Assembly (NCBI RefSeq): GCF_030684315.1
Contig: NC_081376.1
Span: 18,333,018-18,397,017 of the forward strand
Length of the DNA stretch: 64,000 nt
Direction: 5' to 3'
Source: Stegostoma tigrinum
Lineage: Eukaryota
Every line of letters starts with the position of its first letter. The first letter of the stretch is position 1. A model generated the notes under the pieces. That model did not search any database and had not been told where the DNA came from. It saw only the letters and a program-made list of their open reading frames with translations. Shown here piece after piece: positions 2,640 to 64,000 of this stretch. Made by a program: the position numbers and the translations under genes.

Positions 2640-3500
2640 GTCTGGTATTAGGCAAAAGTTTCAAACAGGTCACAGGTCCAAATCAAGCAAGGCCACACTG
2701 AATTCAATTGAAGTTTTACAAATTTGGCTTCACTGTGAGGTTTAAACAATGATCAAGTCAGTACACCATTGTATGCAGATAGTGGCTGCACAGAAGATAT
2801 CCTAGTTAGACAAGGGGCTGGTAAAAAAAAGGCTAAGAATGAGGAAGCAGTAAACGCACTCAAAGTTGAATTCAATCTTTGGGATAAACTACCACTGTCA
2901 AACAGGATAATAAAATGTGAGGCTGGATGAACACAGCAGGCCGAGCAGCATCACAGGAGCACAAAAGCTGACGTGAAGGGTCTAGGCCCGAAACGTCAGC
3001 TTTTGTGCTCCTGAGATGCTGCTCGGCCTGCTGTGTTCATCCAGCCTCACGTTTTATTATCTTGGATTCTCCAGCATCTGCAGTTCCCATTATCACTGTC
3101 AAACAGGCCTTATTTAACACGTGTACCCAAAAACAAGGGGAAAGTATTGATGCATTTATCAGTGATCTGTACAGACTTGCAGAGAAGTATGAGTAAGCAA
3201 ATTGAAAGAAGAACTAATCAGGTATAGAACTGTTGTCTGGTCACTTGCAGTTAAGTAATGACTTGACATTAACAAAGACAATTGAAGAGAAAAGCTGAGT
3301 TCAGGAAATAAAGTTGATTGGTTATTCAGGGTGACAGGGAAAACCATATCCCAAACATGGAGTCTGTTCATTTTAAAAGGAGAGAAATGATCAAGCAAAA
3401 ATAGGGGAGGCAGGAAACATGTGCATCAACTAATGATTGTTGGTGTCAGGGGAGTTGCCCAACTAAAGAAGCCAAAATGTCATTTTTACAAGATTTGTAC
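2640..3500 (+). mobile_element. Gypsy-type LTR retrotransposon gag relic
   Basis: QVSTPLYA..GCTEDILVRQG, FNTCTQKQGESIDAFISDLYRLAEK.E..LKEELIR and a CP.KEAKC knuckle remnant. Interrupted by the 2907-3093 mini-element. Confidence 0.7.
2907..3093. mobile_element. Fold-back (head-to-head) PLE pLTR mini-element
   Basis: Inverted copies of the pLTR. Perfect 14-bp TSD cactgtcaaacagg at 2893-2906 and 3094-3107. Confidence 0.85.
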
Positions 3501-3992
3501 TAAAGCCTAATGGTTCAATCAAGCAGTGCTTTTTCTTACCTCACCAGGCAACAATATAACCAACACTTTTCAGAGAGGACCACAGTGACAAGCTGAATTT
3601 TAATAATAAATCCACTTAAAGGGCAACACTGGCACTGCCAGCATTGTCATTATAAGAACAGCATTGCCGATATACTCTGCTGTCAGTAATGGATCGCTTA
3701 TCCCACTCAGCAACAGGCCCCCTTTGTAAATTATTCTCATACAGCCTGCCAATGCAGTATTACTATTACATCTGTAAACACACACAGCCCTCTTTCATGA
3801 ACTGCAGCAATGTACAAACACGCTTACTTCACTTGTTGTTACTGGATGAAGAGGTCCTCTGAATCTTGCAGATAGAAAGCCAACAGTTTTGTGTGTTTTT
3901 CACCCTGCCTCTTCCCGTGCTGTTTCAACCTTTTACCCTTAGAAAAGCTTTTCAACACTGCTTTGAAACTCTCTCCCATGTACACATCATAC

Positions 3993-4008
3993 AGTGCCCT
4001 CTGCTGGG
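3993..4008 (-). promoter_or_regulatory. CTCF motif
   Basis: The minus strand reads CCCAGCAGAGGGCACT, matching the CCAGYAGRGGGCRC core. Confidence 0.6.
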
Positions 4009-6870
4009 ATCATCACAAGATACAACCTCCCAACGACCTTCAAGCGAGTCAATCGGTTTAATTTGCTGGGGAGTGTATTCATTTCAGTTAACTCATTGTT
4101 TCCCTCTGAGCATATTATCTTGAAGCAGTCAGTCATCCTAAACACATGAAAATAAGAAAAGGGGCGTTTTGTACAAAAGCCATCATGGGGAAAATCTAGA
4201 ATAAGAGGATACATTCATAAAATTAAATCTAGGGCATTTAAGAGCAAGCATTTTGCTTTATTTAAAAGATAATGGCAGTGTGTAGCACATACAAGATTCC
4301 TTACAGCAGTTTTCCCAGGCTCCTTCAAGAATAACTTGCAAACCTGTGACTTTTACTACCTAGAAGGACAAGGGCAGGAGGCAGAGGGGATCACCATCGT
4401 CTGCAAGTTCCTCTCCAAGTCACAAACTATCCTGACTTGGAACAACATCACTGTTGCTGGATCAAATTCCTGGAATTACCTCCCTAACATCACTGTGGGT
4501 ATACCCATCGCAGATAAATCGCAGCAGTTTAAGAAGGTTACTGTTTCACTGCCATTGCCTCAAGGGCAATTATAACAGGCAAAAATCATGCCCACATCCT
4601 TCAAGAGTAGTAAAAGTCAATTGGAACTACTGCTGTCTAAAAAAATTTAGTGTACTTGTTCAATTACACAGAATGAACAGAACCAAGACAGATCATTGGG
4701 CCCAAATGTTCTCTGTTAGTTATTGTCCTCCACATCAGCTTCCTTTCTCAGCCCCTTTTCAGCTCACCCTATCAGCATAGAGACCTCCTTCATGTGCTTT
4801 TCTAGCTTCCCCTCAAATGCCTCAATTCTTTGTCTTCACTGCCTGCTGTTTTAACAGAAAAACCTGCATGTACATACCATTCGGAAGACAATCTAACATT
4901 TCAAAGCACTGCAGAGCCTTTTTGAAACATGGGGACTCAATGTTTCAAAATCAAAACAGCGAACTAACGCACAGTAAGCTCCCAAATGCAGCAATGTGAC
5001 AATGACAGGCTATAATTGCGATGTTTACTGAAGGAGAAACACTGTCCAGGACACTGGTTGTATCACCGCTGCTCTTTTTCAAAACAGTGCCACAGGAGCT
5101 TTCATATCCAGTGATCAGACAGATGGCATGTCATTTTAACAGTGTATCCAATGATAGCATAATTGGCCATTCTCAGCACTGCATTGGAATGTCACTTTTG
5201 ATTTTTGTACCCAAGACCTGGAGTGGGACCAGAACCTTGTGATTGCGAGGTGAGAGAGTTGCCAACAGAGCCACAGTTATTTCAAGTTCTGTCATCTTCT
5301 CACCTTCCAGATAAAGAATTCCATATTGGATTTTTTGGACTCATATTTTTGTCTCCTAATTTTGGACTTCCCAACAGGTGGAAAAATTGTTTCTATGTAA
5401 ACCATTTCAAACCCTTTCAGAATTTTTGAAACCACTCTTAGGTCACTCCTCAGCCTTTCAACTTCTAGCAAAAAACAAAACTCAGCCACCTGTAGACCTT
5501 CCCTGCTCATAATAATCACTCACTTCTGGAATCAACTTTGGAAGTCAATGATGTAGCTTCTCAAGAGCCTCTGTATTAATTTTGAAAAATGGAGATCAGA
5601 AATGCTGGAACTATCAAATGATCAATAGATTTTTGGCAGCTAAGGGAATCTAGAAGCAAGTGAGTAAATTGTGTTGAGGTACAGATTAGCCATGTCTTGC
5701 TAGAATGTCAGACCAGAACAAAGGCTGAATGGCCTCCTCCTGGATGACGATGAAGAGAGATACGCACCACAATCAGACAGGATGTACTTTCTGATTTTGG
5801 GTGAAGTTGTTTCACTGCAGTGGGATGAATAGAAATTGAACTGGAGCGAGTCAAATGGTGGTGTGCAGGAAAGATGAGCACTGATTTGTTAAATGACAAT
5901 ATAAAGACCTTGGAAAAGTAGGGGAGGGTAGAGATCAGGTGGGGTTGGGGAATGGTAGTTTGAAGGGATGAGGAGGAGTCTCACAATGTTGGTTTTTGGA
6001 AAGAAAGGCATCCAGTAATCAAGGAAAGGGAAGAGATTACAAATGCCAGGGGATCAGGAACGGAAGCCAGGTGGTGGTCAAGAGTTTATCAAAAATAGGA
6101 TCAAGGGAGCAAGAGGTGGGTTTCAGTCATGAACCAAAAGAGTATGTGGAAGTGAAATTAAATGGATGTGGTCCAATCCCATAGAAGAAAGAAAGGAATC
6201 TCCAAATTATATTGATAAAAGGCATAGAGGGAAAGCATTTCACTTCATGAAACTTTTACTGTAACAGTCAAACCAACAATCAACTTAAGAAAAACTAACC
6301 AAAGGTATTTCACTTGATAAGATGAATTTCACTTTTAATTGCCAATACCAATAAAGATACATTTTAGAAAACAGTAACCGTTCATATCATACATACATGG
6401 CTTTGCATGCAATTTCAAACTTCTCTAAAATTACCTCTGTTAACTATGAACCCTCTCATATCTCTCAATAAATCAATTCAGTTCTCAAATCATATCAACC
6501 ACAGCTGCCTTTTGTCCGCAACTGTGTCCGGAGATAATGTTAACATTGACAAGGTCCAAGCCTACACATCCTCTCTCACTTGGGTCATGTGTGTCTTGAT
6601 GTCATAGCTGTCCACTGTCACATATGAATTGGGACAAGTTGGGACGCAGTACTTTTAACTGGGTGTCTCCCTGGTTCAAATCTCTTACTCAAGGGGAAAG
6701 CAAGTAAGTGTTGATTTATTTTTCAACTGACCGACGAACAACATTCAGTGTACAGTCTGGTCCTCCAACCAAACTCTCAGCTACTTAGTATAGATGAGCT
6801 GTTCACCCCAATTTCAGGATTCAGTCCCTGTTAGTTCTCACATGCATTTTGCTAACAGATTCTGGAGTTG

Positions 6871-6966
6871 ATCGTAACAAAGTGTAGAGCTGGATGAACA
6901 CAGCAGGCCAAGCAGCATCTTAGGAGCACAAAAGCTGATGTTTCGGGCCTAGACCCTTCATCAGAG
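6871..6966 (-). mobile_element. Solo PLE pLTR (96 bp)
   Basis: Perfect 15-bp TSD cagattctggagttg at 6856-6870 and 6967-6981. Carries a CTGATGA..GAAA core on the minus strand. Confidence 0.85.
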
Positions 6967-9467: not shown

Positions 9468-10521
9468 TCCCCCTCGTTCTCACACATCACCCTACCAACC
9501 TCCGGATACAACGCATCATCCTCCGACACTTCCGCCATTTACAATCTGACCCCACCACCCAAGACATTTTTCCATCCCCACCCCTGTCTGCTTTCCGGAG
9601 AGACCACTCTCTCCGTGACACCCCTGTTCGCTCCACACTGCCCTCCAACCCCACCACACCCGGCACCTTCCCCTGCAACCGCAGGAAATGCTACACTTGC
9701 CCCCACACCTCCTCCCTCACCCCTATCCCAGGCCCCAAGATGACATTCCACATTAAGCAGAGGTTCACCTGCACATCTGCCAATGTGGTATACTGCATCC
9801 ACTGTACCCGGTGTGGCTCCTCTACATTGGGGAAACCAAGCAGAGGCTTGGAGACCGCTTTACAGAACACCTCCGCTCAGTTCGCAACAAACAACTGCAC
9901 CTCCCAGTCGCAAACCATTTCCACTCCCCCTCCCATTCTTTAGATGACATGTGCATCATGGGCCTCCTGCAGTGCCACAATGATGCCACCCGAAGGTTGC
10001 AGGAACAGCAACTCATATTCCGCCTGGGAACCCTGCAGCCTAATGGTATCAATGTGGACTTCACCAGTTTCAAAATCTCCCCTTCCCCAACTGCATCCCT
10101 AAACCAGCCCAGTTTGTCCCCTCCCCCCACTGCACCACACAACCAGCCCAGCTCTTCCCCCCCACCCACTGCATCCCAAAACCAGTCCAACCTGTCTCTG
10201 CCTCCCTAACCTGTTCTTCCTCCCACCCCAAGCTGCACCCCCATCTACCTACTAACCTCATCCCACCTCCTTGACCTGTCCGTCTTCCCTGGACTGACCT
10301 ATTCCCTCCCTCCCTCCCTACCTCCCCACCTATACTCTCCTCTCCACCTATCTTCTTTTCTCTCCATCTTTGGTCCGCCTCCCCCTCTCTCCCTATTTAT
10401 TCCAGTTCCCTCACCCCATCCCTCTCTCTGATGAAGGGTCTAGGCCCGAAACGTCAGCTTTTGTGCTCCTGAGATGCTGCTTGGCCTGCTGTGTTCATCC
10501 AGCCTCACATTTTATTATCTC
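9468..10521 (+). mobile_element. 5'-truncated Penelope-like element (Neptune-type): Zn-finger + GIY-YIG + pLTR, inserted in a CR1
   Basis: PCNRRKCYTC linker, NVVYCIHCTRCG..LYIGETK..RF.EH..HF..QEQ..TLQPNGIN; pyrimidine-rich tail and a CTGATGA..GAAAC terminal repeat. TSD tttttacag(c/a)cagt at 9454-9467 and 10522-10535. Confidence 0.9.
10428..10455 (+). ncRNA. Minimal type I hammerhead ribozyme core in PLE pLTR
   Basis: CUGAUGA-a-GGGU(cuag)GCCC-GAAA-C-GUC. Same core at 15776-15803, 37967-37994 and 53692-53719(-), and with a stem II mismatch at 62739-62766. PLE pLTRs are known to carry minimal hammerheads. Confidence 0.75.
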
Positions 10522-15305: not shown

Positions 15306-15309
15306 ATTG

Positions 15310-16350
15310 AAACTTATACCTAAGTACAGTGAAAAGCTTTGTTTATGAGCAGTACAGGCAGATCATAGTAAGCAAGGATGTTCAGATTAAAAATACTTAG
15401 AGGCGTACAGGTTGTATTGCACAGGGTGTGTGCTTGATCAATGTTAGCAAGACCAGCATTATTTGAGATGACAGAGTCCATTCATCAATCTAAAAACAGC
15501 TGAGAAGAAGCTGTCCTGAACCTGCTTGTGCTTCTGTATCTTCTGCTTGACGGAAAAGGTTGTACGAGGTTATTACCGGGTTGAGATAGGTCCTTGATGA
15601 TGTTGGCAGCCAAGCCGTGGAATTGAGCTGTGTAAATGGAGTCCATTGATGGAAGAGGATCAGAGATAATGGGAACTGCAGATGCTGGAGAATCCAAGAT
15701 AATAAAATGTGAGGCTGGATGAACACAGCAGGCCAAGCAGCATCTCAGGAGCACAAAAGCTGACGTTTCGGGCCTCTGATGAAGGGTCTAGGCCCGAAAC
15801 GTCAGCTTTTGTGCTCCTAAGATGCTGCTTGGCCTGCTGTGTTCATCCAGCCTCACATTTTATTATCTTCCATTGATGGAAGGTTGGCTTCCGTGATTGT
15901 CTGGGCTGGGCACACCATCTTCTGTTGTTTATTACAGACCTGAACAGAGCAGTTGCCGTACTTTGCTGTGATGCACCCAGACAGTACGCTTTCAACTGTG
16001 TAGCTGTAGAAGTTGGTGAGGGACCTTACGGATGTACCAGATTTCCTGAGCCGCCTGAGGAAGAAGAGACATTGTTGGCCTTCTTGACCGTTGCATCCAC
16101 ATGGAAGTCAAGGACATATTGTTGGTTATCATAACTCAGTGACACTTTGCACTCTCTACCCTCTCAACCTCAATTCTATTGATGTAGATGGGGGCACGTT
16201 CTCCTCCTTTCTTTCTGAAATCAATGATCAGTCCTTTAATTTTTCAGATGTTGAGAGAGAGAGGTTGTTATCATTGCACCATGTCACCAAGCTGCCTGTC
16301 TCCCTTCTGTATTTTGACTTGTCATGTTGGACATCTGTCTCACTTATGGT
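15310..16350 (-). mobile_element. Rex1/Babar-like LINE 3' fragment
   Basis: The minus strand reads HVDATVKKA(fs)QCLFFLRRLRK, typical of the Rex1 RT C-terminus. Interrupted by the 15656-15868 mini-element. Confidence 0.65.
15656..15868. mobile_element. Fold-back PLE pLTR mini-element inserted in a Rex1-like LINE
   Basis: Near-perfect inverted arms of about 80 bp. Perfect 14-bp TSD tccattgatggaag at 15642-15655 and 15869-15882. Confidence 0.88.
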
Positions 16351-19700: not shown

Positions 19701-19955
19701 CCTAAATAAGATATCCTGAACCTGGGCACCAGGCAGTTAACGCAGCCTTCAGGACTCTTTCTGAAGGGTCCCAACCCGAAACGTCGGCCTTCCTGCTTCT
19801 CTGATGCCGACTGGCCTGCTGTGTTCCTTCAGCTCCACACTGTGTTACTTCAGGACTCTTGACCCTGATCACAGAGAACTGTGTCAATTCCCCTGACTAT
19901 ACTATCCAAATTACAACTAGACTTCTCTTCCCCCACACTTGAATGGCTCCCTGTA
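16790..19955 (-). mobile_element. Long degenerate CR1 (ORF1 esterase-like, APE, RT, tail)
   Basis: GSNDISTKRKEVLLREYEQLGAKLKLRSKKVVI (ORF1); IQNKVNEL..ILGITES (APE); KSPRPDELHLRVLKE, GVLHGSVLRPQLF, KFQDDTK (RT); (tcttatgg)n tail at 16790. Confidence 0.88.
19760..19847 (+). mobile_element. Solo PLE pLTR inside CR1 ORF1
   Basis: 13-bp TSD cttcaggactctt at 19747-19759 and 19848-19860; contains gaagggtcccaacccgaaacgtc. Confidence 0.8.
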
Positions 19956-24462: not shown

Positions 24463-24660
24463 GAGATAGTAAGAAATACCGATGCTGGAGTCAGAGATAA
24501 GAGTGTAGAGCTGGATGAACACAGCAGGCCAGGCAGCATCAGAGGAGCAGGAAAGCTGATGTTTCAGGTCAGGACCCTTTTTCCTGAAGAAGGGTCCAGA
24601 CCCGAGATGTCAGCTTTCCTGCTCCTGATGCTGCCTGGCCTGCTGTGTTCCTTCAGCTCC
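24463..24660. mobile_element. Fold-back PLE pLTR mini-element (older variant) in a CR1
   Basis: Inverted arms gagctggatgaacacagcaggccaggcagcatc / gatgctgcctggcctgctgtgttccttcagctc. Imperfect TSD cttca(ga)gggatata. Confidence 0.75.
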
Positions 24661-26569: not shown

Positions 26570-29500
26570 TACCGGGGCACAGATAGGCATTTCTGTGGCT
26601 GCGAGCGACTCCCCAGATGTGTACTGCCTCCACAGTAACAGGGTGAAGGATGTCTCTGAGCGGGCAGGAGACATCCTCTAAAGAGTGAGCATCCAGAGGT
26701 TGTGATCCAAATTGGTACGAACACCGTAGACAAGAAAAGTGATGAGATCCTGCAAAAAGAGTTTAGGGGTAGGGTAGTAAGTTGAAAAGCAGGATGTTTA
26801 GGGTTGTAATCTCTGGATTACTCCCTGTGCCATGTGGCAGTGAGGCTAGGGATAAGAAGAGAGTACCACTAAAAACATGGCTAAACAGCTGGGAGGAGGG
26901 AAGGCTTCAGGTATATGGATCATTAGGATGTTTTCCGGGGAGGTGGGACCTGTGCAAGAAACAGTTGCACAAATATCCTGGCAGGAGGTTTGCTAACGCC
27001 ATTCAGAAGGGTTTAAACTAGTGTGGCAGGGAGGTGGGAACGAGAGAAGTAGGTCAGTAAGTGAAATGATTGAGGAGAAATCAGACTCAGGCCTGTAAGG
27101 CTAAGAGGAAGAACAGACAGGGAGATGTTACTGAACATAACAGGACTGGGGTCTGAAGTGTATTTGTTTTAATAATGAGGAGTATGACAGGTCAGGCAAG
27201 TGAGCTTAGTTATATGTATTAATCCAAGCTCTATGATATTGTAGCTATTACAAAGACTTGGTTAAGAAAGGGACAATTTGGCAGCTTAAAAGATTTAGAT
27301 GTTTTAAGTGTGATAAACCCTGATAAACAACAGGGTTCTTGTGGGTGCTTTCAACTCCCCTCAATATTGATTGGGACTCCCTTAGTACCAGGGGCTTGGG
27401 ATGGAATAGGGAGGGGTGGGTGGATTTGTGAGGTGCATACAGGATGGTTTCTTGAAGCAATATGTAAACAGTCCAACTGGGGAAGTGGCCTATTAGATCT
27501 GGTATTAGGGAATGACCGAGCCCGGCCAGGTCGAAGTTTCAGTGGAAAATGGGAGCATTTTGTGAACAGTGACAATAATTCTGTACATTTTGAATTATTT
27601 ACAGGTAAGGATTAGAGTAGGTCTTGGGTGAAAGTACTAAAAACTGTGGGGAGGGTAACTACCACAACATTAGGCAGGATCTGGGGAAGTGTCGATTGGG
27701 GGCAGCTGTTTGGAGGGTAAATTCACATGTCATGTGGGAATCTTTTAAGGCCAGTTGCTTAGCATGCAGGACCAGTATGCTCCTGTGAAAATCAAGGATA
27801 AGGATGGCAAGATTGGGGAACCTCGAATGACAATAGAAATTGTGAGCTAGTCAAAAAGAAAGGAGGCATCCATGAGGATTAGGAAACTGAAGACAGACAG
27901 AGCCCTTGAAGAATATAAAAGAACTTAAACAAGGAATTATGAGGGATAAAGGGGCCATGAAATAACCTTGGAAACAGAATTAAGGAAAATCCAAAAGCAT
28001 TTTATCCGTATAAGGAGCGAGAGGGTAGCAAGGTCCACTCAAGGACAAAAGAGAATTTACACACGGAGCTGGAAGAAGTGAGTAAGGTCCTTAACAAACT
28101 TTATGTATTAGTACTCTCGAAGGAGAAAGACATGGCGGTTGTTGAGTCTAGAGAGGGTTATGTTGATGTTCTAGGGCATGTTGCTATTAAAAAAGGTAGT
28201 GTGGGTGTTTTGAAAAGCAATAAAGTAGATCAGTCCTATGGACCTGCTGGGATCTATCCCAGAATGGTGAGGAAAGAAATTGCTGGGGCCTTGAATGAAA
28301 TCTTTGTATCCACTTTAGTCCCAGAAGATATCCTATAGGACTCGAGATTAGTCAAGTTGTTCCTTCAAGGAGGAGAACAGGGATAGTAGAGGACATTACA
28401 GGCCAGTGACCCTTATGTTAGTGGTAGGAAAATTATTGGGAGAAGATTAGGGACAAGATTTATTCACATTTGGAAAAATATATGGACTTATTAGCCACAG
28501 ACAACATGACTTTGTGCAGGGAAGGTCATGTCTCTCAATAAAAACCGAAAGAATTGCAGATGCTGTAAATCAGGAACAAAAATAAAGTTGCTGGAAAAGC
28601 TCAGCAGATCTGGCAGCATCTGTGGAAGAGAAAACAGTTAACGTTTCGGGTCTGGTGACCCCCACCCCTGAGACCTGCTGAGCTTTTCCAGTAACTTTGT
28701 TTTTGTCATTTCTCTCAAACTTGGATTTGAGTTTTTTTTTGAAGAAATGATAGAGACAATTGATGAGAGAAGGGTGGTGGATGTTGGATACATGTACTTT
28801 AGCAAGGCCTTTGACAAGGTCCCTTGTGGCAGGCTGATACAGGTGAAGTCATATGGGATCCACACAGTGACCTGGTAAGATGGATAGAGAACTGGCTTGG
28901 TTATTGAGGACAGTAGTGGTGGAAGGGGAGTTTTTCCAACAGGAGGTTTGTGACCCATGATGTTCTTCAGAGATCAGTGCTGGAGCCGGTGTTGTTTGTA
29001 ATGATTGGGAGGAGAAAGTACGTAGTCTGATTAGTAAGTTTGCAAATGACATGAAGATTAGGGGAGTTGCAGATAATGAAGAGGATTGCTAGAGGATACA
29101 GCAGAATATAGGTATGATGATGATTTGGGCAGAGAAACAGCAGATGTAGTTTAATCCAGACATGCAAGTTGATACATTTTGGAAGGTCTAATGCAGCAGG
29201 GATATTTAAGTATGTGGCAGAACCCTTAGAAGCATTAACAAACAGGGATCTGGCGTACAATTCCATAATTCTCAGAGTAGTAACACAATTGGATAAGGCA
29301 TATGGCATGCTTACCTTCATTAGTCAGAGCTTGGAGTATTAAAAACTGGTAAGTCATGTTGCAGCTGCATTTAGTAGGGCTACTTTGGAATTATTCGTAC
29401 ACTTCTAGTCACACTACTGGAAGGATATGGAGGCTTTGGAGAGGTACAGAAACAATTTGCCAGGATGTTGGCTGGCTTGGATGGCATTAGCTGTGAAGAG

Positions 29501-37351: not shown

Positions 37352-38059
37352 TGTGTATACTGCATCCACTGTACCCGGTGTGGCATCCTCTACATTGGGG
37401 AAACCGAGCAGAGGCTTGGGGACCGCTTTGCAGAACACCTCCGCTCGGTTCGCAATAAACAACTGCACCTCCCAGTCGCAAACCATTTCCACTCCCCCTC
37501 CCATTCTTTAGATGACATGTCCATCATGGGCCTCCTGCAGTGCCACAATGATGCCACCTGAAGGTTGCAGGAACAGCAACTCATATTCTGCTTGGGAACC
37601 CTGCAGCCCAATGATATCAATGTGGACTTGACCAGCTTCAAAATCTCCCCTTCCCCTACCGCATCCCAAAACCAGCCCAGTTCGTCCCCTCCCCCCACTG
37701 CATCCCAAAACCAGTCCAACCTGTCTCTGCCTCCCTAACCTGTTCTTCCTCTCACCCATCCCTTCCTCCCACCCCAAGCCGCACCTCCATCTCCTACCTA
37801 CTAACCTCATTCCACCTCCTTGACCTGTCTGTCTTCCCTGGACTGACCTATCCCCTCCCTACCTATACTCTCGTCTCCACCTATCTTCTTTTCTCTCCAT
37901 CTTTGGTCCGCCCTCCCCCCCCTCTCTCCCCTTATTTATTCCAGAGCCCTCTCCCCATCCCCCTCTCTGATGAAGGGTCTAGGCCCGAAACGTCAGCTTT
38001 TGTGCTCCTGAGATGCTGCTTGGCCTGCTGTGTTCGTCCAGCCTCACATTTCATTATCT
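37352..38059 (+). mobile_element. 5'-truncated Penelope-like element (GIY-YIG end + pLTR) in Maf intron 1
   Basis: Near-identical to 9790-10520. TSD tgaataaagc(c/t)gg at 37339-37351 and 38060-38072. Confidence 0.9.
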
Positions 38060-39461: not shown

Positions 39462-39465
<4 letters not shown>

Positions 39466-41270: not shown

Positions 41271-44200
41271 ATATAGGACCTTCCACAAATGCAGAATGTT
41301 ACATAGTGCTTTACAGCCAATTAAATAATTGTGAAATGTAGTCACAGTTGTCAACGTAGAAATTTGTGTACAGTAAACTTCCACAAACTGTGTTGCTGAG
41401 ATGTCAAATACTTCAGAGCTATAAACCCAAGAGACGGTAGGCCAATTAAATTGGAAAGAACTGCTCAGCCAGCACAGAAATAGTCGTCAACTGGTCTCCT
41501 TATGTACTGTAGATGTTTATGCTTGGGCTTAAAAATCAGGCAATACTGCTAGGTTCTCATCGTGCAGGATGCCAGAAAGACCCTAACATTTCAACTCAAA
41601 GTCAATGGTGTCCGATTGTTGAAATGTTAAGCTGCTGTGATGCTTCAGTTGCATATGTTCTGTGATGGTAATACTAATAGTTGATTGCGGCTAGAGTGCA
41701 GAAGTTAACACTCTATGCTGAGTCAGTAAATAATGGGCTCAAATGCCATTGCAAGGACTTGAGCACATCTGGGTTCACATTCCAGACAAGTACGGAGAAA
41801 ATGTTGCACTGTCAGAAGTATCAAATTTCAGATAAAGCTTTAAAACCAGGAATCCATCTGCCTTGTAGATAGATGCAAGATGTCCCACAGCACCGAGAGT
41901 TCTCTCTGGTGCCTTTGGCATTTTCCCCTCGGGATTTTCAAAAATCCCTTGCCAGTAAATGAAGTACTTCTATTAAATATATAGCTATGGTTGTAATGTG
42001 GGAAATGCAGCAACCAATTCTCACATGGCAAGCTCCCACAAGCATCAGACTTATTTTTAATAATTTGATTGATGAATAAACATTGGCCAGTGTTGTCACT
42101 AGCATTTAAAGTACATTGTTCCAATCTTTGCGACCTCTTACAACCTTCCAAAGAGTGGGAAGTCCAATAAGATGATTCTGAGATATATTGGAACCTTTAG
42201 AACAGAGGATATGTCCTAATACATCCAAATGATAAAGAGACAAAGAACAAGGACAGTTCAAGCAAGAAAATTTCAATCTCGTCCTTACCAAGTTTTGATA
42301 TTTGCTTGTAAAGCTGCTTTAACGTAGAAACAAACGCAAGAAAGTGGGGAGGAGAATGTAAAATATTTATTAAAGGGATAGAAGAATGAACATGATAGGT
42401 GATAATGACTAACAGCTTGTTTGGAGTGATGGGGTTCAAGATGATTTACAAAAAGGTGGGAATTTCGATAGATTAGGACCGAAGCAGCAAAAGATTGGAC
42501 CAATGATGGCGTGACGAGTAGGCTACCCAGCATACCACACACAGTGGAGGATTAAGGGTCTCAGGAGCCTGTAAAGAACTGGAAGATGATATTGTAGAGG
42601 CATTTGAATACATAACAAGACGCTTATACATTGAGGGTCTAGGAGAAAATAAGGCCAGTGTTAGTCAGGGGAAAGGAGATAATCAAACAGGACTTGCTGA
42701 CAGACATTTGAAGGTTTATATCAGATGAACAATATTGAGAAAAGCAATAACAAGCTTTCGTTTTATGGAAAGTAAGAGTATATTGGTATGGAAGGGGCAG
42801 GTGTGCCTTGCATTCCATGTTGGGGAACTAAGGATTACAGCTGTTCGTACGGGGCCAGAAGAGATTTGATCAAGATTGAAATAAATGAGTCAGACAGCAT
42901 TAGAGGAGAGAAATGGAGTTTGAGTTTCAGTTGATTACCATTCATCAAGTACAATGGAAGGCCATCAACTCAAAATGTTAACTCTATTTCACTGCACAGA
43001 TGTTGCGAGACCTGCTGAGTATTTTCAGAATTTGCTTTTATTTCAGATTTCTGGCATCCACAGTATTTTACTTTTATATCAGAATAGGATGTGCTGAAGT
43101 CACAAAGTAATTTGAAGACATGGCAGAGGATGTGCAATGAAGAAATGCCTCTTGTCTCATCAAATCCATCAGATAATGGAAAGATCCAGGTGAAGAAAAC
43201 TTGTCCGCCTGGAAAAACTTAATAATCCTATTATAATATTTAATGTTTTCATGGTTTCTGCTTTCTCTTGCATTCAACTTCCTTGAGTAGTGAACAATAG
43301 GATCAATTATTCACAGTGAATCCATGTTAAGTGCTATAAAACTAACAGCACCCAAAAACACTGCAGATGCTGGAAATCTGAAATATAAACAAAGTGGTGG
43401 GGATATAAACTAGCAGATCTGGACTGTGTTGAGAGAAAGAGAGTTAACTTTTCCACATCTTGAATGACTTTTTCAGTATGCCAAGTGCTGCAAGTATCAG
43501 ACTTAAATTAACAGTCAATTACAGTAATGAACTGTATCGGCTGAGGAGAGATTTTCCTATTAATACTGATTCAGCCAAATAATAATGCTCAACGATTTAA
43601 AGATTGAAATAAAATGATGTTATTATGTTCTCCATTAATCTTTCACTGTCACGTTGAATCTACAACAGAGAAACTGGCCATTTGGCCAAAGACTCCAGAC
43701 AAGTCACTCACACTCCCTTTTCAGCAGAGCCTTTTATTCCTTTCCCCTTTGTGCCTTTTTCTAGCTTCACTTTTGCTGCAACTATTCTGTATAGTAGTAT
43801 GTTCCAAATTCTTTCAGGTTTCCTCCGACTTCATCTTATATTGTACATAGGAACAAGAATAGGTGTTAACTGGCAAATAACAACAAAAACAGGGAAGGGC
43901 TAAACTTTGACCCTAATCATTACTAAGGTTTGTAACCTAGAGACATGGACACAATAACATTTAACATCTCACAGGCAAAAGACACCACCTGATGCCTGCA
44001 TGTGTATGTAAACGGTCAGAATATTAAAGGCTAATACTTCTCATTAAACAGATCTCTTCTTTAATAACATTTGTAAAGAAATACATGAAAATCCTTCTGA
44101 CAGATTCACAATACTGGTGCAATTAGACACCAAACCACATAATTCATCAACCCACACACCCACAACATTCTCCTAAAGTGGCATAGCTGAGCAATGAGTC

Positions 44201-46170: not shown

Positions 46171-47094
46171 AAAATAATCCCCAAAGGAAAGAAATACTGA
46201 ATATAAAGTTCATATCAAATACTTAATTTAAGTTATATAATTATTACTCAGTCCAAATGCTAAAATACTACGTTTAAAATATAGAATATAAAAATGTATG
46301 AGCAATATAAATCTATTACATAAAATTTTTAAGTAATTGATATGTGAAGCTGAGTATAACTTATATGCAGGCTGCTAGGTGAAACACAGTATTGAATATA
46401 AGTTATATACAGTGTGCCATATGTAAATTCTTTATTCAATTCTGAATATAAATGAGTCTTTCACATAAAATTGGAAAAATTGTGTGCAGAAAATCAAAGA
46501 TGTTAACCTAGATTCTTTGTACAGCAGGCAGAAGGTAGAATTCTCTGGCACAAAGCAAATTTGAAGCAAATTTCGTAAATTATTTTGGAAGAATGAGTTC
46601 ATTGAAGAGAAATGCTAAAGGCTACCACAAATGTATAGTGGAGTGGCGTCAGACTGGATGGGTCATGTGGTAGGTGAAGATAAACACCAGATCTGAAGCC
46701 GTGCTATAAGTTGTATAAGTTTTTTGGATACTTAAACAGTGATGGTATCTTTAAATGAATGAATGGTAAATCCATCTTCTCTAGCTACTTTAAGGGTGGC
46801 CACTCGATTCAAGTCACAGCTGACATTAAACTTCATGGGAAGTTTAGTCAACCCTCTGATGTAATGTATAAGGAAGATGGGTGGTACATAAAAGGGCATA
46901 AGAAGTAGTCAAATTGGCACTTAAACCCCCATGGTTCACTGACATCCTTCACTTACCATGCTCATTGGGCCTAATTGAAGATATTACTGCAGTCACCAAC
47001 AGAGCTGATTTTTTTAAACGATCAGAAACCTATATATTTCCGACTCAGAGGTGTTAGTGTTACAACCAAACAACAATGATTGTTTAACAAAAAG

Positions 47095-48625
47095 TGTCCT
47101 CTTTGTAGGTTACGTGGAACAATCCCTCTTCCGTACCTACACTGGCCCTAAACCCCACCTCTTCCTCCGTTACATTGATGACTGTATCGGTGCCACCTCC
47201 TGCTCCCAAGAGGAGCTTGAACAGTTCATCCACTTCAAAAACACCTTCCACCCCAATCTCAAGTTCACCTGGATCATCTCTAACACATCCCTCACCTTCC
47301 TGGACCTCTCTGTCTCCATCTCAGGCAATCATCTAGAAACTGACATCCATTTCAAGCCCACAGCTACCCAGAATACACCTCCTCCCACCCACACTCCTGC
47401 AAAAATTCCATCCCCTATTCCCAATTCCTTCGCCTCCACCGCATCTGCTCCCAGGATGAGGCATTCCACTCCCACACATCCCAGATGTCCGACTTCTTCA
47501 AGGACCGCAACACCCCCCCAAGTGGTCAAGAATGCCCTCGACTGTGTTTCCCGCAACTCGTCCCTCACAGCCCGTACCCGCCATAACCGCGAAAAGAGAA
47601 TCCCCTTTGTCCTCACATACCACCCCACCAACCTCCGGATCCAACTCGTCATCCTCCGACACTTCTGCCATCTACAATCCGACCCCACCACCAAAGATAC
47701 TTTTCTATCCCCACCCTTGTCTGCTTTCCAGAGAGACCACTCTCTCCGGGACTGCCCTGTCCGCTGCACACTCCCCTTCAAGCCCACCACACCCAGCACT
47801 TTCCCCTGCCACTGCAGGAAGTGCTACACTTGCCCCTACACCTTCCCCTCACCCATATCCTAGGGCCCAAGAAGACTTTACACAACGAGCAGATGTTCAC
47901 CTGCACATCTTCCAGTGTGGTATACTGTATCCACTGCACCCGGTGTGGCTACCTCTAAATCGGGGAAACCAAGCGGAGGCTTGGGATCATTTTGCAGAAC
48001 ACCTACGCTTGGTTCACAATAAACAACTGCACCTCCCAGTCACGAACCATTTCAACTCCCCCTCCCATTCCTTAGACGACATGTCCATCCTGGGCCTCCT
48101 GCCGTGCCATGATGATGCACCCGAAGGTTGCAGGAACAGCAACTCATATTCCGCTTGGGAACCCAGAAGCCCAATGGTATCAATGTGGACTTCACAAGCT
48201 TCAAAATCTCCCCTCCCCCCACTGCATCCCAAAACCAGCCCAGCCCGTCCTCGCCTCCCTAACCTGTTCTTCCTCTCACCTATCCCCTCCTCCGACTTCA
48301 AGCTGCACCTCCATTTCCTACCTACTAACATCATCCGGCCCCCTTGACCTGTCCATCCTCCCCAGACTGACCTATCCCCTCCCTACCTCCCCACCTAAAC
48401 TAACTTCTACAGGCTCCATCCCCGCCCCTTTAACTTGTCTGTCTCCTCTCCACCTATCTTCTCCTCTATCCATCTTCGATCCGCCTCCCCCTCTCTCACT
48501 ATTTATTTTAAAACCCTTCTCCCCATCCTCCTTTTCTGATGAAGGGTCTAGGCCCAAAACGTCAGCTTTTGTGCTCCTCTGATGCTGCTTGGCCTGCTGT
48601 GTTCATCCAGCTCTACACCTTGTTA
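47095..48625 (+). mobile_element. Penelope-like element fragment with RT C-terminus, thumb, GIY-YIG and pLTR (frameshifted)
   Basis: FLRYIDDC RT motif, HPNLKFT, LTFLDLSV, RIPFVLTYHP, then the same 3' end as the other copies. The hammerhead GAAA is mutated to AAAA. Confidence 0.9.
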
Positions 48626-49190
48626 ACCCGTACAGGCACATTTTCCATTATGGAGTCAGTTAACACTGATCAGGAGAATGCCTGTCCACCAGCTATAAAG
48701 AACATAACAGGATTGTGATGAAATAAAAACCAATAGTCAGATTGGTGCAGCTGTGATAACACTCAAATAGCTCACCACCACAAAGGCAGAACAACCCACT
48801 TGATTAGCACCTCAGCCACCACCGTAAGTGTTCATTCTCTTCACTACTGAGACACAGTGGTAGCAGAATATACCATCTACAAGAAGCACTGTAGTTACTG
48901 ATGAGATTCGAAAAGGCTGGTTTCCCAGAGTAAGAAACAGTTCACTACTGTGCTGTCTGGAAGATTGTAAATGACACAGAACACATAAAGATTAGAGCCT
49001 AGACTACACTGGATACACACAATAAACGAAATGTGGACTGAAAAAGCAAGCACAATGTAATCTTACAACCAGTTTACAACCAGGATTATGAAATAGGTGA
49101 AGAATGAAAGCTAGAGAAATCTTACTGAGCTCTGTCCCCAAAAGCCCATCCACCCATGACATCATGATCTCCATCACAGAGAGTAAGCAG

Positions 49191-49975: not shown

Positions 49976-52900
49976 GGAGGCAGGTCTTGAATCCAGCAGA
50001 ACAGGGATTGAACCCTGTGCTATTAACGCCAGCCTGATCCTCTCCAACCAACTGAGCCAACAAGTCTCCCAAGGAGTTCAAGTTGCTGTGGTAGCATATA
50101 CTTTTACATGCACATCGTATCCTGGAGCTATGGACAGTGATGGTAGAAGCTTCAATTTTATTTCATCACGTGAATATCACCTTCGCATACTGCCTATCAT
50201 TGGCATATGTTGAAAGGATTTATTGGCTGTGTTATGAATACACTATTCCTAGCTTTCAAATGCTGGAGTGGTATTTGGACCTGTAGCCTCAGTCTGAAAT
50301 GTATTACTGTGTACCACAAGACTTTTCACAACCTTAAGATATTGCAAAATGCTGTACATCTAAGCAAGTCCTTTTCAAGGAACAAAATCAGAAATTGCTA
50401 ATTTGGGTCCTGTGACCCTTCTTCAGAACTCAATTCTATATATGGCTATACTCATCACACATTTGACCAATAGTTTGGAAATGCCTCATTTAGTGATGAA
50501 ATCACTTGCTCAAAATAGTAAATCGTAAAAGCTGTGCAAACCAACATTTTATGAGATCTAGGTGTCATCAGAGCCTGCCCTTAGACCTAATTCTGTCCTT
50601 CCTCCAGTGCTGTCCCAGTCTTCCCCCACCGATGGGCCTGCCTGTATTCTATAAAGGAATATTTATCACAAGATTTCTCATTTACATTAAGCTTTTGATT
50701 GGGATCATTTATGGCATGAATTGTCTGAATCACAAAAAGACAATATAATAATAAAAATTAAATACACATATTAAAGCAACAAAATCAGGTTTATGTCGAA
50801 TGGTAGCTGGAAAATTAATTCTGAGTTCAATTCAGAGGTGAAATTATGGACTTAAATTTGGCATATAAATTCAAGTTGCATAAATAAATGAAAATTAAAT
50901 TGGTACCTTTGAAACTTGTAGACATAATCTGTAGATAATATCTATTTTCAATAAACATAGAGAAAAGGTACCACAGAAAGCACAGTTTCAAAATTAAAAC
51001 AACATGAGTTGTTCGGCATTGAAGAGGGACACCCATCCCAGACTTGGTCTCATGGTCCTAGCATTATTTAAGTTTATTCTGAACAATCAATTACCCTGAA
51101 TATAGGATACATTGCAATCAGTTTACCTGGAATAAATTCTTACAAATAGCACATAGTCTGTTTTCAGTGCTGGCCGATGGACAAGCACATGCCAGGTCAA
51201 GGGGAGAAATCTTTGCTCTTTTTTGAACTACTATCATGGGAGTTTATTTTATGCCCATCTAAGACGGACAATGGAGTATAAACCAAAACTATTGAAACAC
51301 TCAGGGTCTGGCAGCACCTGTGGAGCAAGAAAAAAAATTAACGTTTCAAAACTTGTTTTTTTTTGTTTGTTTCTGTTTTTGTTTCAGATTTCCAGTATTT
51401 TGCTTTTGTGATGCAGCCTTGGTTTAACATTGCACCCAAAGGCAGCACCTACAGACCATCAATACTACATTTGAGTGTCAACCATGCTTTTGTGCTCAGA
51501 TCTCTGGAGTGGATGTGTTCCTCCGTCTTGGAGTTGAGGAAGGGATATGGCAGGAAGGTCTTTGAGACCAATCAGTAGGCTTGTTTGAACTAATTACTGT
51601 TCATAAAAATTCCTATGTCATTGTGCATCATTTTACTCCATTGCAACTCAAAGGCATGTACTATAATCAAGGTAAGTGGCATAGTATTTATTGGACTGAA
51701 ACACTACTTGTCGTAAATAGAAGTAACAAAGCAACAGATTTACCAATTACAATGTACTTCTCGCCTGAGTAATTGAGACATATAGCGCAGGAAGGTGAGA
51801 GACGCTAGTCTGACTCTGTGCAGTGTTAATCAGTCTTGGTGATAACACTGGTGAGAGGGTGGTTGGTGCACTTGTTAGTCAGAGGGAAGAAATTAGATTC
51901 TTTCTTTTGATCAATTTCCACCAATCCCTTTTGGATAGATGTTTATGTGAAGATTGGGTGAAAACAACGATAAGATTTAACAGAAAATCCTTTTGCTGTC
52001 CCTCTGTTAGTGCAGTAAGATGGTTTGTCATGCTCTATATCAAGATTCATGTGTGATATGGATGAAAGTCACTTGGCTGAATCAAAATTTCACAGCACAC
52101 TGGAGTCCATTTGACCATTGTACATGTGCTGACTCTTTCAATCAGTTCTTCAGTCAGCACCATCTCTCCCTCTTCCTGTTTTCTCCCTACAATTCTTTAA
52201 TTATCTAAGTCACATTTGAAATATTTTCGTTGATTCTGCTTCAGCTATCCTCTTCAGACAGTGCATCCCAGATCATCACAGCATACAGTGTGAAAGAAAC
52301 TCATGTGTCCTCAGGCTTTTTAGCCAATCATCTTTGAATTGTGTCTTCTGTTGGTACCTCCCCCACCACATGAACAATTTCTCCTTATTTATTCTATCAA
52401 CATTTCTCAGGAGGTACGATGAGCTACTAAAAAGTACTTTGAGCATTAGGGAGAGGAGGAAAAGGTTCTTGGGTTCTAAATTCAGGATGTCTTATCCAGT
52501 CAGTGGTTTACTTTTGAAATGTAGTCATTGATGTACTGTGGAAAACGTGGCAGCCAACGTTTGCATAACAACTCCCACAAACATAATCTAATGATGATCA
52601 GATAATCTGTCTCTGTTGCTGATTGTATGGGAAAACTCCACTGCTTTTCTTCAAAATTTCCTATTTTTTATTTCTTACCATAAATAGAAGTAACAAAGCA
52701 ACACATTTACCATTGAGACATATAGAGCAGGAAGGTGAGAGATTCTGGTCTCATTCTGTGCAATGTCAATCAGTCTAGGTGATAGTGCTGGTGATAGAGG
52801 GTGAAATTTTTTTTAAATTTTACCAATTTTTCTAAATATCCTGTTCAGAGATGATTATCACACATCTCTGAAGCAGGTGGGACTTGAACTTGGGCCTCTT

Positions 52901-53629
52901 GGTCTAGGGGCAGGAACACCACCACTGCACCATTAGTGGGCCCTTTATGGGATCTTTTGCATCCAGCTAAGAAGGTAGACTTAGTTTAATATCTCAACCT
53001 CGTCCCAAAAACAGCATCCCAATTCCATCTTAGTACTGCAGTGGAAGGTCAGTGAAGAGTTTTGTATTCAAGTTTCTTGAGGGGACTTGAACCCACAATT
53101 TTCTGAATGAGAAAAACAGTGCTACCAACTGAGCCATAGATAACCCGATAGAGGAAGAAATACATGAAACGTTTGTATACATTTACTATGTTCTAATTCT
53201 CTACAGAGTACAAAAACAGAAATTGCCAGAGAAACTCAGCAGGACTGGCAGCATCTGTGGGAAGCAGAGGTAACATTTCAAGTTCCGTGACTCTTCATCA
53301 GTTTCTCCAGCAGTTTCTGTTTTTGTTTCAGATCTCCAGAATCCACAGTTCTGTGTTTCACATGTAGGGTTCAGTTCCTTTCAGTTGCAATTCCTCTCTT
53401 GAGAGCTCAACATTCAATGGCTCAGTACCACCACTAACAGGAATGTGATAGTACTACATCTCAGTGCCTGTTACTTATAACAAATTGTCAGTTTCTGTGC
53501 AGAGAGAAACACGGTTTAATATTTCAGGTCTTTCATCAGATCTGGGAAAAGTTAGAAATGTAAGAAGTTCTCAGTAAGCAAAAGTAACAAGGGTGGGAAG
53601 ATGAACAAAAGTAAATGCCTGTAATTGGT

Positions 53630-54829
53630 TAATAAAATGTGAAGCTGGATGAACACAGCAGGCCCAGCAGCATCTCAGGAGCACAAAAGCTGACGTTTCG
53701 GGCCTGGACCCTTCATCAGAGAGGGGGATGGGGTGAGGGAACTGGAATAAATAGGGAGAGAGGGGGAGGCGGACCGAAGATGGAGAGAAAGGAAGATAGG
53801 TGGAGAGGAGAGTATAGGTGGGGAGGTAGGGAGGGGATAGATCAGTCCAGGGAAGACGGACAGGTCAAGGAGGTGGGATGATGTTAGTAGGTAGGAGATG
53901 GAGGTGCGGCTTGGGGTGGGAGGAAGGGATGGGTGAGAGGAAGAACAGGTTAGGGAGGCAGAGACAGGCTGGGCTGGTTTTGGGATGCAGTGGGTGGAGG
54001 GGAAGAGCTGGGCTGGTTGTGTGGTGCAGTGGGGGGAGGGGATGAACTGGGCTGGTTTTGGGATGCCGTGGAGGAAGGGGAGATTTTGAAGCTGGTGAAG
54101 TCCACATTGATACCATTTGGCTGCAGGGTTCCCAAGCAGAATATTGAGTTACTGTTCCTGCAGCCTTCGGGTGGCATCATTGTGGCACTGCAGGAGGCCC
54201 ATGATGGACATGTCATCTAAAGAATGGGAGGGGGAGTGGAAATGGTTTGAGACTGGGAGGTGCTGTTGTTTATTGCGAACCGAGCGGAGGTGTCTGCAAA
54301 GCGGTCCCCAAGCCTCCGATTGGTTTCCCCAATGTAGAGGAAGCCACACCGGGTACAGTGGATGCAGTATACCACATTGGCAGATGTGCAGGTGAACCTC
54401 TGCTTAATGTAGAAAGTCATCTTGGGGCCTGGGATAGGGGTGAGGGAGGAGGTGTGGGGGCAAGTGTAGCATTTCCTGCAGTTGCAGGGGAAGGTGCCGG
54501 GTGTGGTGGGGTTGGAGGGCAGTGTGGAGCGAACAAGGGAGTCACGGAGAGAGTGGTCTCTCCGGAAAGCAGACAGGGGTGGGGATGGAAAAATGTCTTG
54601 GGTGGTGGGGTCGGATTGTAGATGGCGGAAGTGTCAGAGGATGATGTGTTGTATCCGGAGGTTGGTGGGGTGGTGTGTGAGAACGAGGGGGATCCGCTTT
54701 GGGCGGTTGTGGGGTGTGAGGGATGTGTTGCGGAAAATGCAGGAGACGCGGTCAAGGGCGTTCTCGACCACTGTGGGGGGAAAGTTGCGGTCCTTGAAGA
54801 ACTTGGACATCTGGGATGTGCAGGAGTGA
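53630..54829 (-). mobile_element. 5'-truncated Penelope-like element
   Basis: Reverse complement of the same family (FKDRNFPPTVV, RIPLVLTHHP, NVVYCIHCTRCGFLYIGET), with the pLTR at 53630-53720. Confidence 0.9.
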
Positions 54830-55081
54830 AATTCCTGCTTCCTCAGCAGAGAACTAAAAGGAGCTCTAGAAGATTGGTGCACAGAATCCTCTAATAAAGA
54901 CAGCTGTAGTGAAGTGAGTGTCACATTTCTTTCACGTTATGTCCCAGAGAATAATGAACAGTTACATTTTGACCTTGTGCTAGAAGAATTTCTGAAGATT
55001 ACTTTCAACCTCATGGGGAGGCAATAGCGTAGTGGTTTTATTGGTTGACTTTTCATCCAAACACCCAGCTAATTTTCTGAG

Positions 55082-55279
55082 AGGAAAAAAATTACAGATG
55101 CTGGAAATCAGAAGCAACACAGAAATTGCTGGAGAAACTCAGCAGAGAAAAGTGCTAATCTTTTCTTAGCTAAAATCAGTTCTGAAGAAGGGTCACTGAA
55201 CCACAAACATTAACTTTGCTTTTGGTCCACAGATGCTGCCAGATCTGCCAAGTTTTCCCTGCAATTTCTGTCTTTGTTT
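55082..55279. mobile_element. Fold-back mini-element of the second pLTR family inside a SINE
   Basis: Arms cagaaattgctggagaaact and agttttccctgcaatttctg, with a CTGAAGAagggtca core near 55182. Similar copies at about 42950-43070, 43350-43480, 51275-51400 and 53208-53357. Confidence 0.65.
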
Positions 55280-58635: not shown

Positions 58636-58669
58636 AACTAACAAGTTTTTTTTTGGGTTTAATCCACAG
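58636..58669 (+). promoter_or_regulatory. Branch point / pyrimidine tract / 3' splice acceptor upstream of METTL4
   Basis: aACTAAC, then a T-run, then ccacAG ending at 58669, 231 nt before the ATG. Confidence 0.5.
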
Positions 58670-58900
58670 ATTTCCATATTGGCATTTGGAAGTTTCAGGT
58701 TTACAACCGAAGTAGCAGCTAATGATCTGCTGAAAACAGATTTCTTTATATACCTTTCAAACAAGTGACAGTGGAGGAGAGACAGTGGGGAAAAGGGAAG
58801 TGGGCTAGTTATTGGTGAAGGAAGAGTTTGAGTTAGCAGAGAGTGGAAGCAGGAGACGACGCTCAAGCAAACTCTGTTCTTGCTGCAAGCGTCGGGAGTG

Positions 58901-61015: not shown

Positions 61016-61487
61016 CCTATAATGCCAGAATAGGTTGTTTTAAAATACCTATGGCAATGTGATGAACACGTAACTTGTTCTAGTGATGTTAGGTAAGAGA
61101 TTATATATTTGCTGGTGCACAAGAGAGGAACCCCCCCATTCTCTTTGAAATAATGCAGAGAAATAGTTAACATGCATTTCTTTTCAATATTTCTCAAAAA
61201 ACCACTACTTCAGATATTGTGGTACTCCTCACTGCTGTATTGGAGCATCAGCCTAGATTATGTGCTTAAGTCTGTGGAGTGGAGATTGAAACTAATCTTT
61301 CACTCAAAACAGTTCTACACAGTAAGCCAGGGTTGACGCTTATTCCAAATATCATCTCACTGCAGATAACTGATATTTCCACAAAGGAAGTGGTGCACTG
61401 TCGGGTTGAGTTGCTCTCCTGAGGTAGTATATTGCTTCCACACAGCAACTCCTGACCAGAGACATAAATGCCAACAATTCAGCATCA

Positions 61488-62590: not shown

Positions 62591-62612
62591 AAGTGTCAAG
62601 TTGCTGGTCTAA

Positions 62613-62827
62613 GAGATAAAGAGAACTGCAGATGCTGGAGAATCCAAGATAACAAAATGTGAAGCTGGATGAACACGGCAGGCCAAGCAGCATCTCAGGA
62701 GCACAAAAGCTGACACGTTTTGGGCCTAGACCCTTCCTCTGATGAAGGCTCTAGGCCCGAAACGTCAGCTTTTGTGCTCCCGAGATGCTGCAAGCCCTGC
62801 TGTGTTCATCCAGCTTCACACTTTGTT
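62613..62827. mobile_element. Fold-back PLE pLTR mini-element
   Basis: Inverted arms. 15-bp TSD aagttgct(g/c)gtctaa at 62598-62612 and 62828-62842. Confidence 0.85.
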
Positions 62828-64000
62828 AAGTTGCTCGTCTAACTGGATTCTGTGATATCAGTGCTAATTAGCAAACTACAACTGCCAACAGCTACCTTGA
62901 TAAATAATCAAGAAAAATACATTCCTATTCATGACTGTATCAGAGGGTTATCCTAAACTTGTTGCACTCTTGCAATAACCCTGTTTTCCATTGAAATAAT
63001 GCAAGTATCAAAATAGCAGCAAATAATTTTTTAAAAATTAACAACCAGACAAAAACAAAGTAAGACTCAGAGTCCAGTTGCTTCATAACAAAATTAGTCA
63101 TACAGTTCATAGCCCATAGTCATATAGTGTATACAATTATTCTTCCACTTTCCCCACAAATATTTAAATGCATTCACAGTCATTTAAACTAGAACGACTC
63201 CAATCCTTTAATCAATTTATAAAGCTCTACTTCCTGTTATAATGAAGAACGTAAACATGATGTAAACTGCTTAGGGATCCTGAATCTGGCTCAGTAGTTG
63301 CTGATTTCCTACAACAATTAGTTCTTGAAATTAATATAGTAGCGAGCACAAACAAACAGTTAACTACATGAGAGGTGGGCATAATTTGTGATTAGTTATC
63401 TGCTTTTCAGTATTTGCCTTTAAATTTGTAAATTCAGGGCCTGGCATGGAAGGATCACTTACCATCCGTACCTCCCCAAACAGCATCAGTATTGGTTATA
63501 CAGCACAGCAAGAGCACAAACACTGAACAGTATTCTTCTATTCACTGTCAAACTTAGGGTACCTGTTTGCTCAATTATTGTCCATTATTTAGCAAAGTGC
63601 ACAATAGAGTATTGTGTCCAATTAGACTGATCTAATCCGAATGTGCGTTCTCAGTGGTGTCCAAACACGTTTTTCAATCCAATAAAACACAACTTCCTCC
63701 CTTTTTGTTTAAAAACACGTCTTGGCATTTGTACGCCCACCATGTTGGAGGATGAAGGAGTCACAAGTGCAATGAGGCCACGTAATGTCAGTAGTTGTGG
63801 GCACAGACATCGGGAATGCATCACTATAAATTGTTATTTCTTTTAGCCAGAGTAATATTTTAATCAATCATTCATGAGGTGTCTGGCACAGGTGAGGTCA
63901 GTGGTTATTACCCATCCTAACTATACATGTGACAGTTGCCTTGGCCTTCTTGAACCACCAAAGTCTGAAAATTGAAGGTACTCCTGCACACTGCTGTTGG

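Follow-up and report, generated by a model that had tools for sequence, protein, structure and literature searches.

Short insertions built only from a Penelope-like terminal repeat in the genome of Stegostoma tigrinum

A 64,000-nucleotide stretch of Stegostoma tigrinum DNA (contig NC_081376.1, positions 18,333,018 to 18,397,017; hereafter the window, in whose numbering all coordinates are given) is vertebrate DNA rich in remains of long interspersed nuclear elements (LINEs). It also carries Penelope-like elements (PLEs), present as long copies and as seven short insertions of 88–215 bp each that consist of the PLE terminal repeat and nothing else. Positions within the repeat are counted from the predicted hammerhead cleavage C (window 10455 = 0). 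The short insertions are real and mostly ordinary, and they leave one testable mechanistic lead, a pile-up of 5′ ends at about −29.

Four long copies, all of family A and all 5′-truncated, encode the 3′ part of the PLE open reading frame (ORF), with reverse transcriptase (RT), a CX5CxxC linker and a GIY-YIG endonuclease; none carries a 5′ repeat or an inverted repeat. The copy at 9468..10521 (+) comprises the linker zinc finger, the GIY-YIG region, a C-rich 3′ untranslated region (UTR) and the terminal repeat, and is inserted in an older repeat, LINE-like by eye, between target site duplications (TSDs) at 9454-9467 and 10522-10535. A second copy (37352..38059, +) has its TSD at 37339-37351 and 38060-38072. 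The longest one (47093..48628, +) is frameshifted and includes the C-terminal part of the RT, the linker, GIY-YIG, UTR and terminal repeat; its 5′ end is not fixed and its TSD was not found. The fourth (53630..54860, −) has an approximate 5′ end and no convincing TSD. The region 47018-47860 matches RVT_1-bearing proteins of PLE layout (best E 3e-93), with a tblastn alignment to protein P0005 of 37% over 390 aa. The region 9757-10206, whose endonuclease translation shows VVYCIHCTRCGFLYIG, aligns with the C-terminus of protein P0012, which carries PF01541 (51% identity over 82 aa), and the zinc-finger-like linker reads CNRRKCYTC in the frame 9446-9943. A Pfam scan of three PLE fragments returned no families. 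The closest protein relatives of the long repeat are from Stegostoma and Chiloscyllium.

By its predicted translation, the parent is thus an endonuclease-positive PLE, combining RT, GIY-YIG and a tailed terminal repeat with a hammerhead motif. Passages of PMC8557442 give a CX2-5CxxC linker between RT and endonuclease as defining Neptune/Nematis and not Penelope/Poseidon, and the PLE clades reported in vertebrates, in a part of bioRxiv 10.64898/2026.07.22.740005, are Neptune and Poseidon. Because of its CX5CxxC linker, the parent element is assigned on sequence to Neptune or Nematis. A region on the minus strand from 61486 to about 62090 is probably a decayed long PLE copy of family C; a frame near 62000-62090 looks endonuclease-like by eye, yet was not detected by tblastn.

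The terminal repeat starts with a minimal type I hammerhead motif, for which self-cleavage is predicted (10428..10455, +; core 10428-10434, helix II 10436-10447, predicted cleavage after 10455). An Rfam scan gave seven weak matches, all below the gathering score and none to a hammerhead, and the miRNA-type matches reflect hairpin shape; the ribozyme call therefore rests on the motif together with the description of minimal hammerheads in PLE terminal repeats in passages of PMC4209133. The core motif is present in three of the four long copies, the fourth having a mutated GAAA. The earlier note on this DNA had called the mini-elements hammerhead-bearing, which holds for three of the seven: a motif scan found the intact CTGAnGA...GAAA core at 6964 (−), 15776 (+) and 62739 (+) only, the remaining four having a mutated core or being cut inside it. 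The same passages of PMC4209133 expect a minimal PLE hammerhead to be active only as a same-strand dimer; the cores of the head-to-head units described below sit on opposite strands.

Five of the seven short insertions are head-to-head fold-backs and two are solo repeats; the bounds of the fold-back arms were set by hand. Three fold-backs belong to family A. The first (2907..3093; TSD 2893-2906/3094-3107, 14 bp, exact) has a tail arm at 2974-3093 (−23 to +96) and a tailless arm at 2907-2973 (−2 to +63). In the second (15656..15868; TSD 15642-15655/15869-15882, 14 bp, exact) the tail arm at 15656-15775 (+106 to −13) meets the tailless arm at 15774-15868 (−29 to +65) through a 2-nucleotide (nt) microhomology. 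The third (62613..62827; TSD 62598-62612/62828-62842, 15 bp, one mismatch) has a tail arm from +99 to −22 and a tailless arm from −29 to +62. The family B fold-back (24463..24660) has a tail arm reaching about −21 and a tailless arm that starts between −27 and −31 and has an early end at about +48; its imperfect TSD (24450-24462/24661-24675) is 13 bp long with a 2-nt insertion in the right-hand copy. In the family C fold-back (28539..28704; TSD 28525-28538/28705-28718, 14 bp, one mismatch) the tail arm reaches helix II and is followed by a few filler bases and a short tailless arm. The solo repeats lie at 6871..6966 (−; −29 to +62 plus 4 extra nt; TSD 6856-6870/6967-6981, 15 bp, exact) and, for family B, at 19760..19847 (+; about −28 to +62, core with a 3-nt deletion; TSD 19747-19759/19848-19860, 13 bp, exact).

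All seven insertions claimed in the earlier note were thus found, and its size range of 90–215 bp needs correction only at the lower bound. Its six clean TSDs do have lengths of 13–15 bp; four are exact and two carry one mismatch. The imperfect TSD that it gave for 24463-24660 was borne out, as was the similar TSD length of the long copies (9454/10522, 14 bp; 37339/38060, 13 bp; one mismatch each). A TSD score of at least 10 was obtained for 8 of the 17 intervals tested vs 3 of 150 random position pairs. The nine intervals below 10 are 24463..24660 (score 9), two long copies and six old family C intervals; at the old family C copies and these two long copies TSDs were looked for and none was convincing. 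Read in the sense of the element, the TSD at 6856-6870 agrees with the tail of that element in 11 of 12 positions, possibly through target-RNA pairing or by chance, and no such likeness was seen by eye in the other TSDs. A search with a 20-nt repeat motif gave no viral loci and two metagenome loci, which matched over 19–22 nt (the motif only) and were judged to be chance.

A terminal-repeat profile scan of the window gave 25 matches, including three further old fold-backs of family C: 51273..51415 (one arm tailed, TSD not found), 53208..53360 (tailless arm to −27, TSD not found) and 55085..55279 (arms about 35 nt apart, the spacer possibly family C UTR; no convincing TSD). Two old family C solo repeats with a tail lie at 42955..43071 (+; TSD not found) and 43336..43477 (−; 5′ end about −28), the latter with a weak TSD candidate of 12 bp with two mismatches and a score not above the null.

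Exactly one arm is tailed in all eight fold-backs, the tail being 30–45 nt long, as in the PLE inverted copy with a 30–40 bp tail described in passages of PMC3846280, PMC8557442 and PMC8969392. Strands without a tail stop at +62 to +65, with one exception at about +48; the tailed arm of every fold-back continues to +95 to +106, and a TTATCT motif is common to both end sites. The five fold-backs among the seven short insertions have predicted folding energies of −64 to −165 kcal/mol from either strand (z = −23 for 15656-15868). The earlier note had foreseen hairpins with arms of about 80 bp as a possible source of siRNA or ADAR substrates; their predicted stability is very high, and the arms are asymmetric.

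In six of the eight fold-backs, each arm has sequence that is absent from the other; neither arm was therefore copied from the other, and these six need two templated strands. This bears on self-priming, argued for rotifer Penelope elements in passages of PMC3846280, in which a tailed cDNA folds on its palindromic hammerhead and copies itself: in the same six the tailless arm extends further 5′ than the tail arm. The other two, 2907-3093 and 28539-28704, are compatible with self-priming, and 2907-3093 fits it better than it fits two templated strands, because its hairpin junction lies exactly in register on helix II and a variant base absent from the other copies occurs in both of its arms. 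For the fold-backs as a whole we consider self-priming very unlikely.

The earlier note had asked whether the fold-back junctions are shared or unique, and they proved unique: all eight differ, as do all three within family A, whose inner ends (tail/tailless) are −23/−2, −13/−29 and −22/−29. Only these three are directly comparable, which tempers the count, because the junctions of the other fold-backs would differ anyway, coming from other families. Contigs from four sequencing runs (X1, X6, X10 and X16) were also aligned to 9468-10521. Run X1 gave 302,146 aligned records, for which 15 of 279 joints are considered here, some joints being uncounted. The strongest opposite-strand joint among these 15 has three contigs and a depth of 141 vs about 38 million summed over the repeat, and no shared fold-back junction is among them. 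The X1 joints thus weaken the reading of a shared junction; a shared junction could be hidden in X1, especially a near-palindromic one absorbed as mismatches. A replicating fold-back element is not supported, given the differing junctions in the window and the three-contig joint among these 15.

As one alternative, the earlier note had proposed a retrozyme-like RNA. This is not supported: the junctions in the window are unshared, the units are solo or head-to-head and never head-to-tail (0 of 7), four of the seven lack an intact core, the cores of head-to-head units lie on opposite strands, and no short copy begins at the ribozyme cut site (+1). A wider version, in which a non-autonomous retrozyme-like or SINE-like (short interspersed nuclear element-like) short RNA replicates through the PLE enzyme, would have the fixed ends (−29 to about +65) expected of a defined short RNA; it also fits the ratio of repeat-only arms to long copies in families A and B (10:4) and the origin of retrozymes from PLE pseudo-long terminal repeats (pLTRs) given in a part of bioRxiv 10.64898/2026.07.22.740005. 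Summed X1 contig depth, which is no copy number and takes in sister subfamilies, counts in its favour: it is 3.6–12.4 million over the body and UTR and about 38 million over the repeat, a three- to tenfold step, and it rises at the repeat in X6, X10 and X16 as well, the coverage of X6 and X16 being no measure of expression or editing. Such an RNA is nevertheless hardly probable given the unshared junctions in the window and among the 15 X1 joints; family A arms are moreover no further from the long copies (for most, 0–3 differences over 65 nt) than from one another, with no separate lineage seen, the window has no head-to-tail arrays, no copy starts at the cleavage site, and the solos 6871-6966 and 19760-19847 have no tail. 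We are highly confident that the short copies are independent, non-replicating products.

Many 5′ ends pile up at one place. Five of the ten tailless strands of families A and B end at −27 to −31 and one at −2; the other four are long (about −667, −987, −1150 and beyond −1500), and none ends between −32 and about −660. In a simulation of truncation at constant hazard, such clustering arose by chance with a probability of 5e-6 to 7e-3. This count excludes three family C intervals (53489-53540, 61486-61582 and the tailless arm at 55176) because they apparently keep family C UTR upstream; the 5′ ends of two copies from family C, whose UTR differs, fall at −27 and −28. The position is the 5′ edge of the hammerhead core and the start of a long polypyrimidine tract, and TSDs adjoin −29 directly. 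The pile-up is not ordinary truncation. The truncation or template-switch origin suggested in the earlier note stands in outline, whereas random truncation is contradicted by the wall at about −29. A palindrome at the repeat 5′ end has already been described in rotifer PLEs (passages of PMC3846280), so that published work partly foreshadows a fixed start of the repeat.

The contigs point to the same position. Among the 5′ loose ends of X1 that carry long unrelated flanks, the one with most support falls at 10427 (−28; 839 contigs, median 255 letters, agreement 0.37), and 12 contigs have a loose end there in X6. Of the 15 X1 joints, only one goes back, and its landing point is 10426; two others, whose kind is unstated, arrive at 10424 and 10426. 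X10 has one fold-back contig at 10430. Tail sequence continues past +65 in X1, X6 and X10. The going-back joint (10466 to 10426, back 41, two contigs) has a 3-nt microhomology; it would bring a second complete hammerhead core onto the same strand, 41 nt from the first, the pair being a candidate dimeric ribozyme.

Two causes of the wall were tried and rejected. A splice acceptor does not agree with family A, which has no AG there, or with TSDs that abut −29, and hammerhead cleavage would be expected to leave an end at +1. In family C copies (53540-53560, 55170-55178 and 61582-61600), the core is preceded by a branch-point-like motif, a pyrimidine tract and, two bases before it, a CAG, an arrangement that resembles the end of the intron next to the hammerhead of D. 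virilis.

Two further explanations concern the fixed end itself. The products might be dead ends that arise when RT, at work on the 3′ repeat of a tandem transcript, stalls at the border where the hammerhead meets the C-rich 3′ UTR. Such a stall would coincide with the start of the polypyrimidine tract and with the 5′ limit of the hammerhead fold and would not need a second priming site, and the long copies show that the enzyme can pass the border; the same border in the two family C copies with a different UTR and the unexceptional predicted stability of the 122-nt region (z = +0.8) make it unlikely. Alternatively, the short elements could be solo repeats that remain after the two repeats of a once full-length insertion recombined, flanked or not by an inverted copy. 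Fixed 5′ ends and retained TSDs would follow, and inverted repeat, repeat, ORF and repeat is the full structure described in passages of PMC3846280. We give this little credence: a 5′ repeat is found in none of the four long family A copies, the homology is only about 95 bp, and several short copies look young, with arms differing at 1–2 of 65 positions and exact TSDs.

We rather favour, as a whole mechanism, independent dead-end products of target-primed reverse transcription with staggered nicks and two priming sites. According to passages of PMC11167929, the enzyme of the anole Poseidon element makes nicks in both strands of DNA in vitro and extends them, and its reverse transcription begins at two RNA sites lying close together; the tail is the sequence that separates these sites. 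In the shark, nicks staggered by 13–15 bp would give the TSD; reverse transcription would be primed from one nick at the near site (+62 to +65) and from the other at the far one (+96 to +106). A single cDNA would leave a solo repeat, and two cDNAs joined in or near the quasi-palindromic hammerhead through 0–2 nt of microhomology would leave a head-to-head fold-back.

Run-off, giving a strong-stop-like product, is the likeliest cause of the wall: the enzyme would prime on the 5′ copy of the repeat and run off the RNA 5′ end after about 95 nt. That −29 is itself this RNA 5′ end we hold at slightly short of an even chance. A more ambitious version, in which the short insertions are fossils of a strong-stop step, the 95-nt cDNA being inserted as a solo or fold-back or jumping to another repeat to yield longer, tandem copies, is rather doubtful. 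Several points weigh against these proposals. None of the four long copies has an inverted arm; the start site of the D. virilis element, as deduced from passages of PMC2377424 and PMC4209133, is more than 100 nt upstream of its hammerhead; the simulation was designed post hoc, with the ambiguous end of 24463..24660 fixed at −29; and part of the sharpness of the peak at 10427 comes from alignment clipping in a sister subfamily, which has a different UTR immediately upstream.

The best-supported of the 15 X1 joints runs from 10520 to 10456 (depth 545 + 129), linking the +65 end plus 4–5 tail letters to +1, the exact predicted hammerhead cut position. It could be a template jump from cleaved RNA, the kind of joint being unstated. 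If the strong-stop reading is true, this rarer joint exactly at +1 would be the first trace of ribozyme-cleaved RNA serving as a template in vivo.

The window also contains a small Maf bZIP coding exon (31893-32285, −; PF03131); its upstream intron may include the repeats at higher coordinates, and the pre-mRNA would then contain hairpins. A 449-codon stop-to-stop MT-A70 frame with no intron break (58832-60181, +), which we take to be METTL4-like, is possibly a retrocopy.

Very many repeat-only insertions would be a statistical record of priming sites, nick spacing (13–15 bp) and stop points, bearing on how PLEs build pLTRs, inverted copies and tails, which is unsettled in the papers cited. 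Should the −29 wall be the RNA 5′ end, an LTR-like strand-transfer step would be suggested for a target-primed element; otherwise the insertions are ordinary debris, with long hairpins in host transcripts as the only side effect.

Non-LTR retrozymes are described as head-to-tail repeats with a hammerhead per unit and circular RNA (passages of PMC7229834 and bioRxiv 10.64898/2026.07.22.740005). The shark copies resemble those of metazoans in being protein-free, related to type I hammerheads, derived from PLE terminal repeats and flanked by TSDs longer than 4 bp, and differ in their solo or head-to-head arrangement and in the broken cores. A literature search covering mainly the running text of open-access papers found no repeat-only fold-back PLEs in sharks and no strong-stop step for PLEs.

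In retroviruses and LTR elements, minus-strand strong-stop DNA is a short cDNA of fixed length made by run-off at the RNA 5′ end, and it can in principle transfer to the 3′ repeat. Priming in the shark element would take place on nicked target DNA and not on a tRNA, and run-off and transfer are steps that we infer.

Closer parallels are found among PLEs. As described in passages of PMC11167929, Poseidon PAc of Anolis carolinensis likewise has a minimal hammerhead in its repeat, two end sites separated by the tail and insertions that retain the uncleaved hammerhead. It differs from the shark element, whose CX5CxxC linker is absent from Penelope/Poseidon, and its ORF begins in the hammerhead, whereas both ATGs in the shark repeat reach stops within 14 and 28 codons. 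Canonical endonuclease-positive PLE insertions, in the passages of PMC3846280 and PMC8557442 devoted to them, share with the shark copies the head-to-head inverted repeat, the one-ended tail, the TSD, a junction near the palindrome at the repeat 5′ end and heavy 5′ truncation. The shark insertions are distinguished by being repeat-only (88–215 bp), by 5′ ends piled at −29 and by TSDs of 13–15 bp vs 8–10 bp in the rotifer examples of the same passages. The structure is the known PLE insertion pattern as it appears in a shark family, perhaps one already present in repeat libraries.

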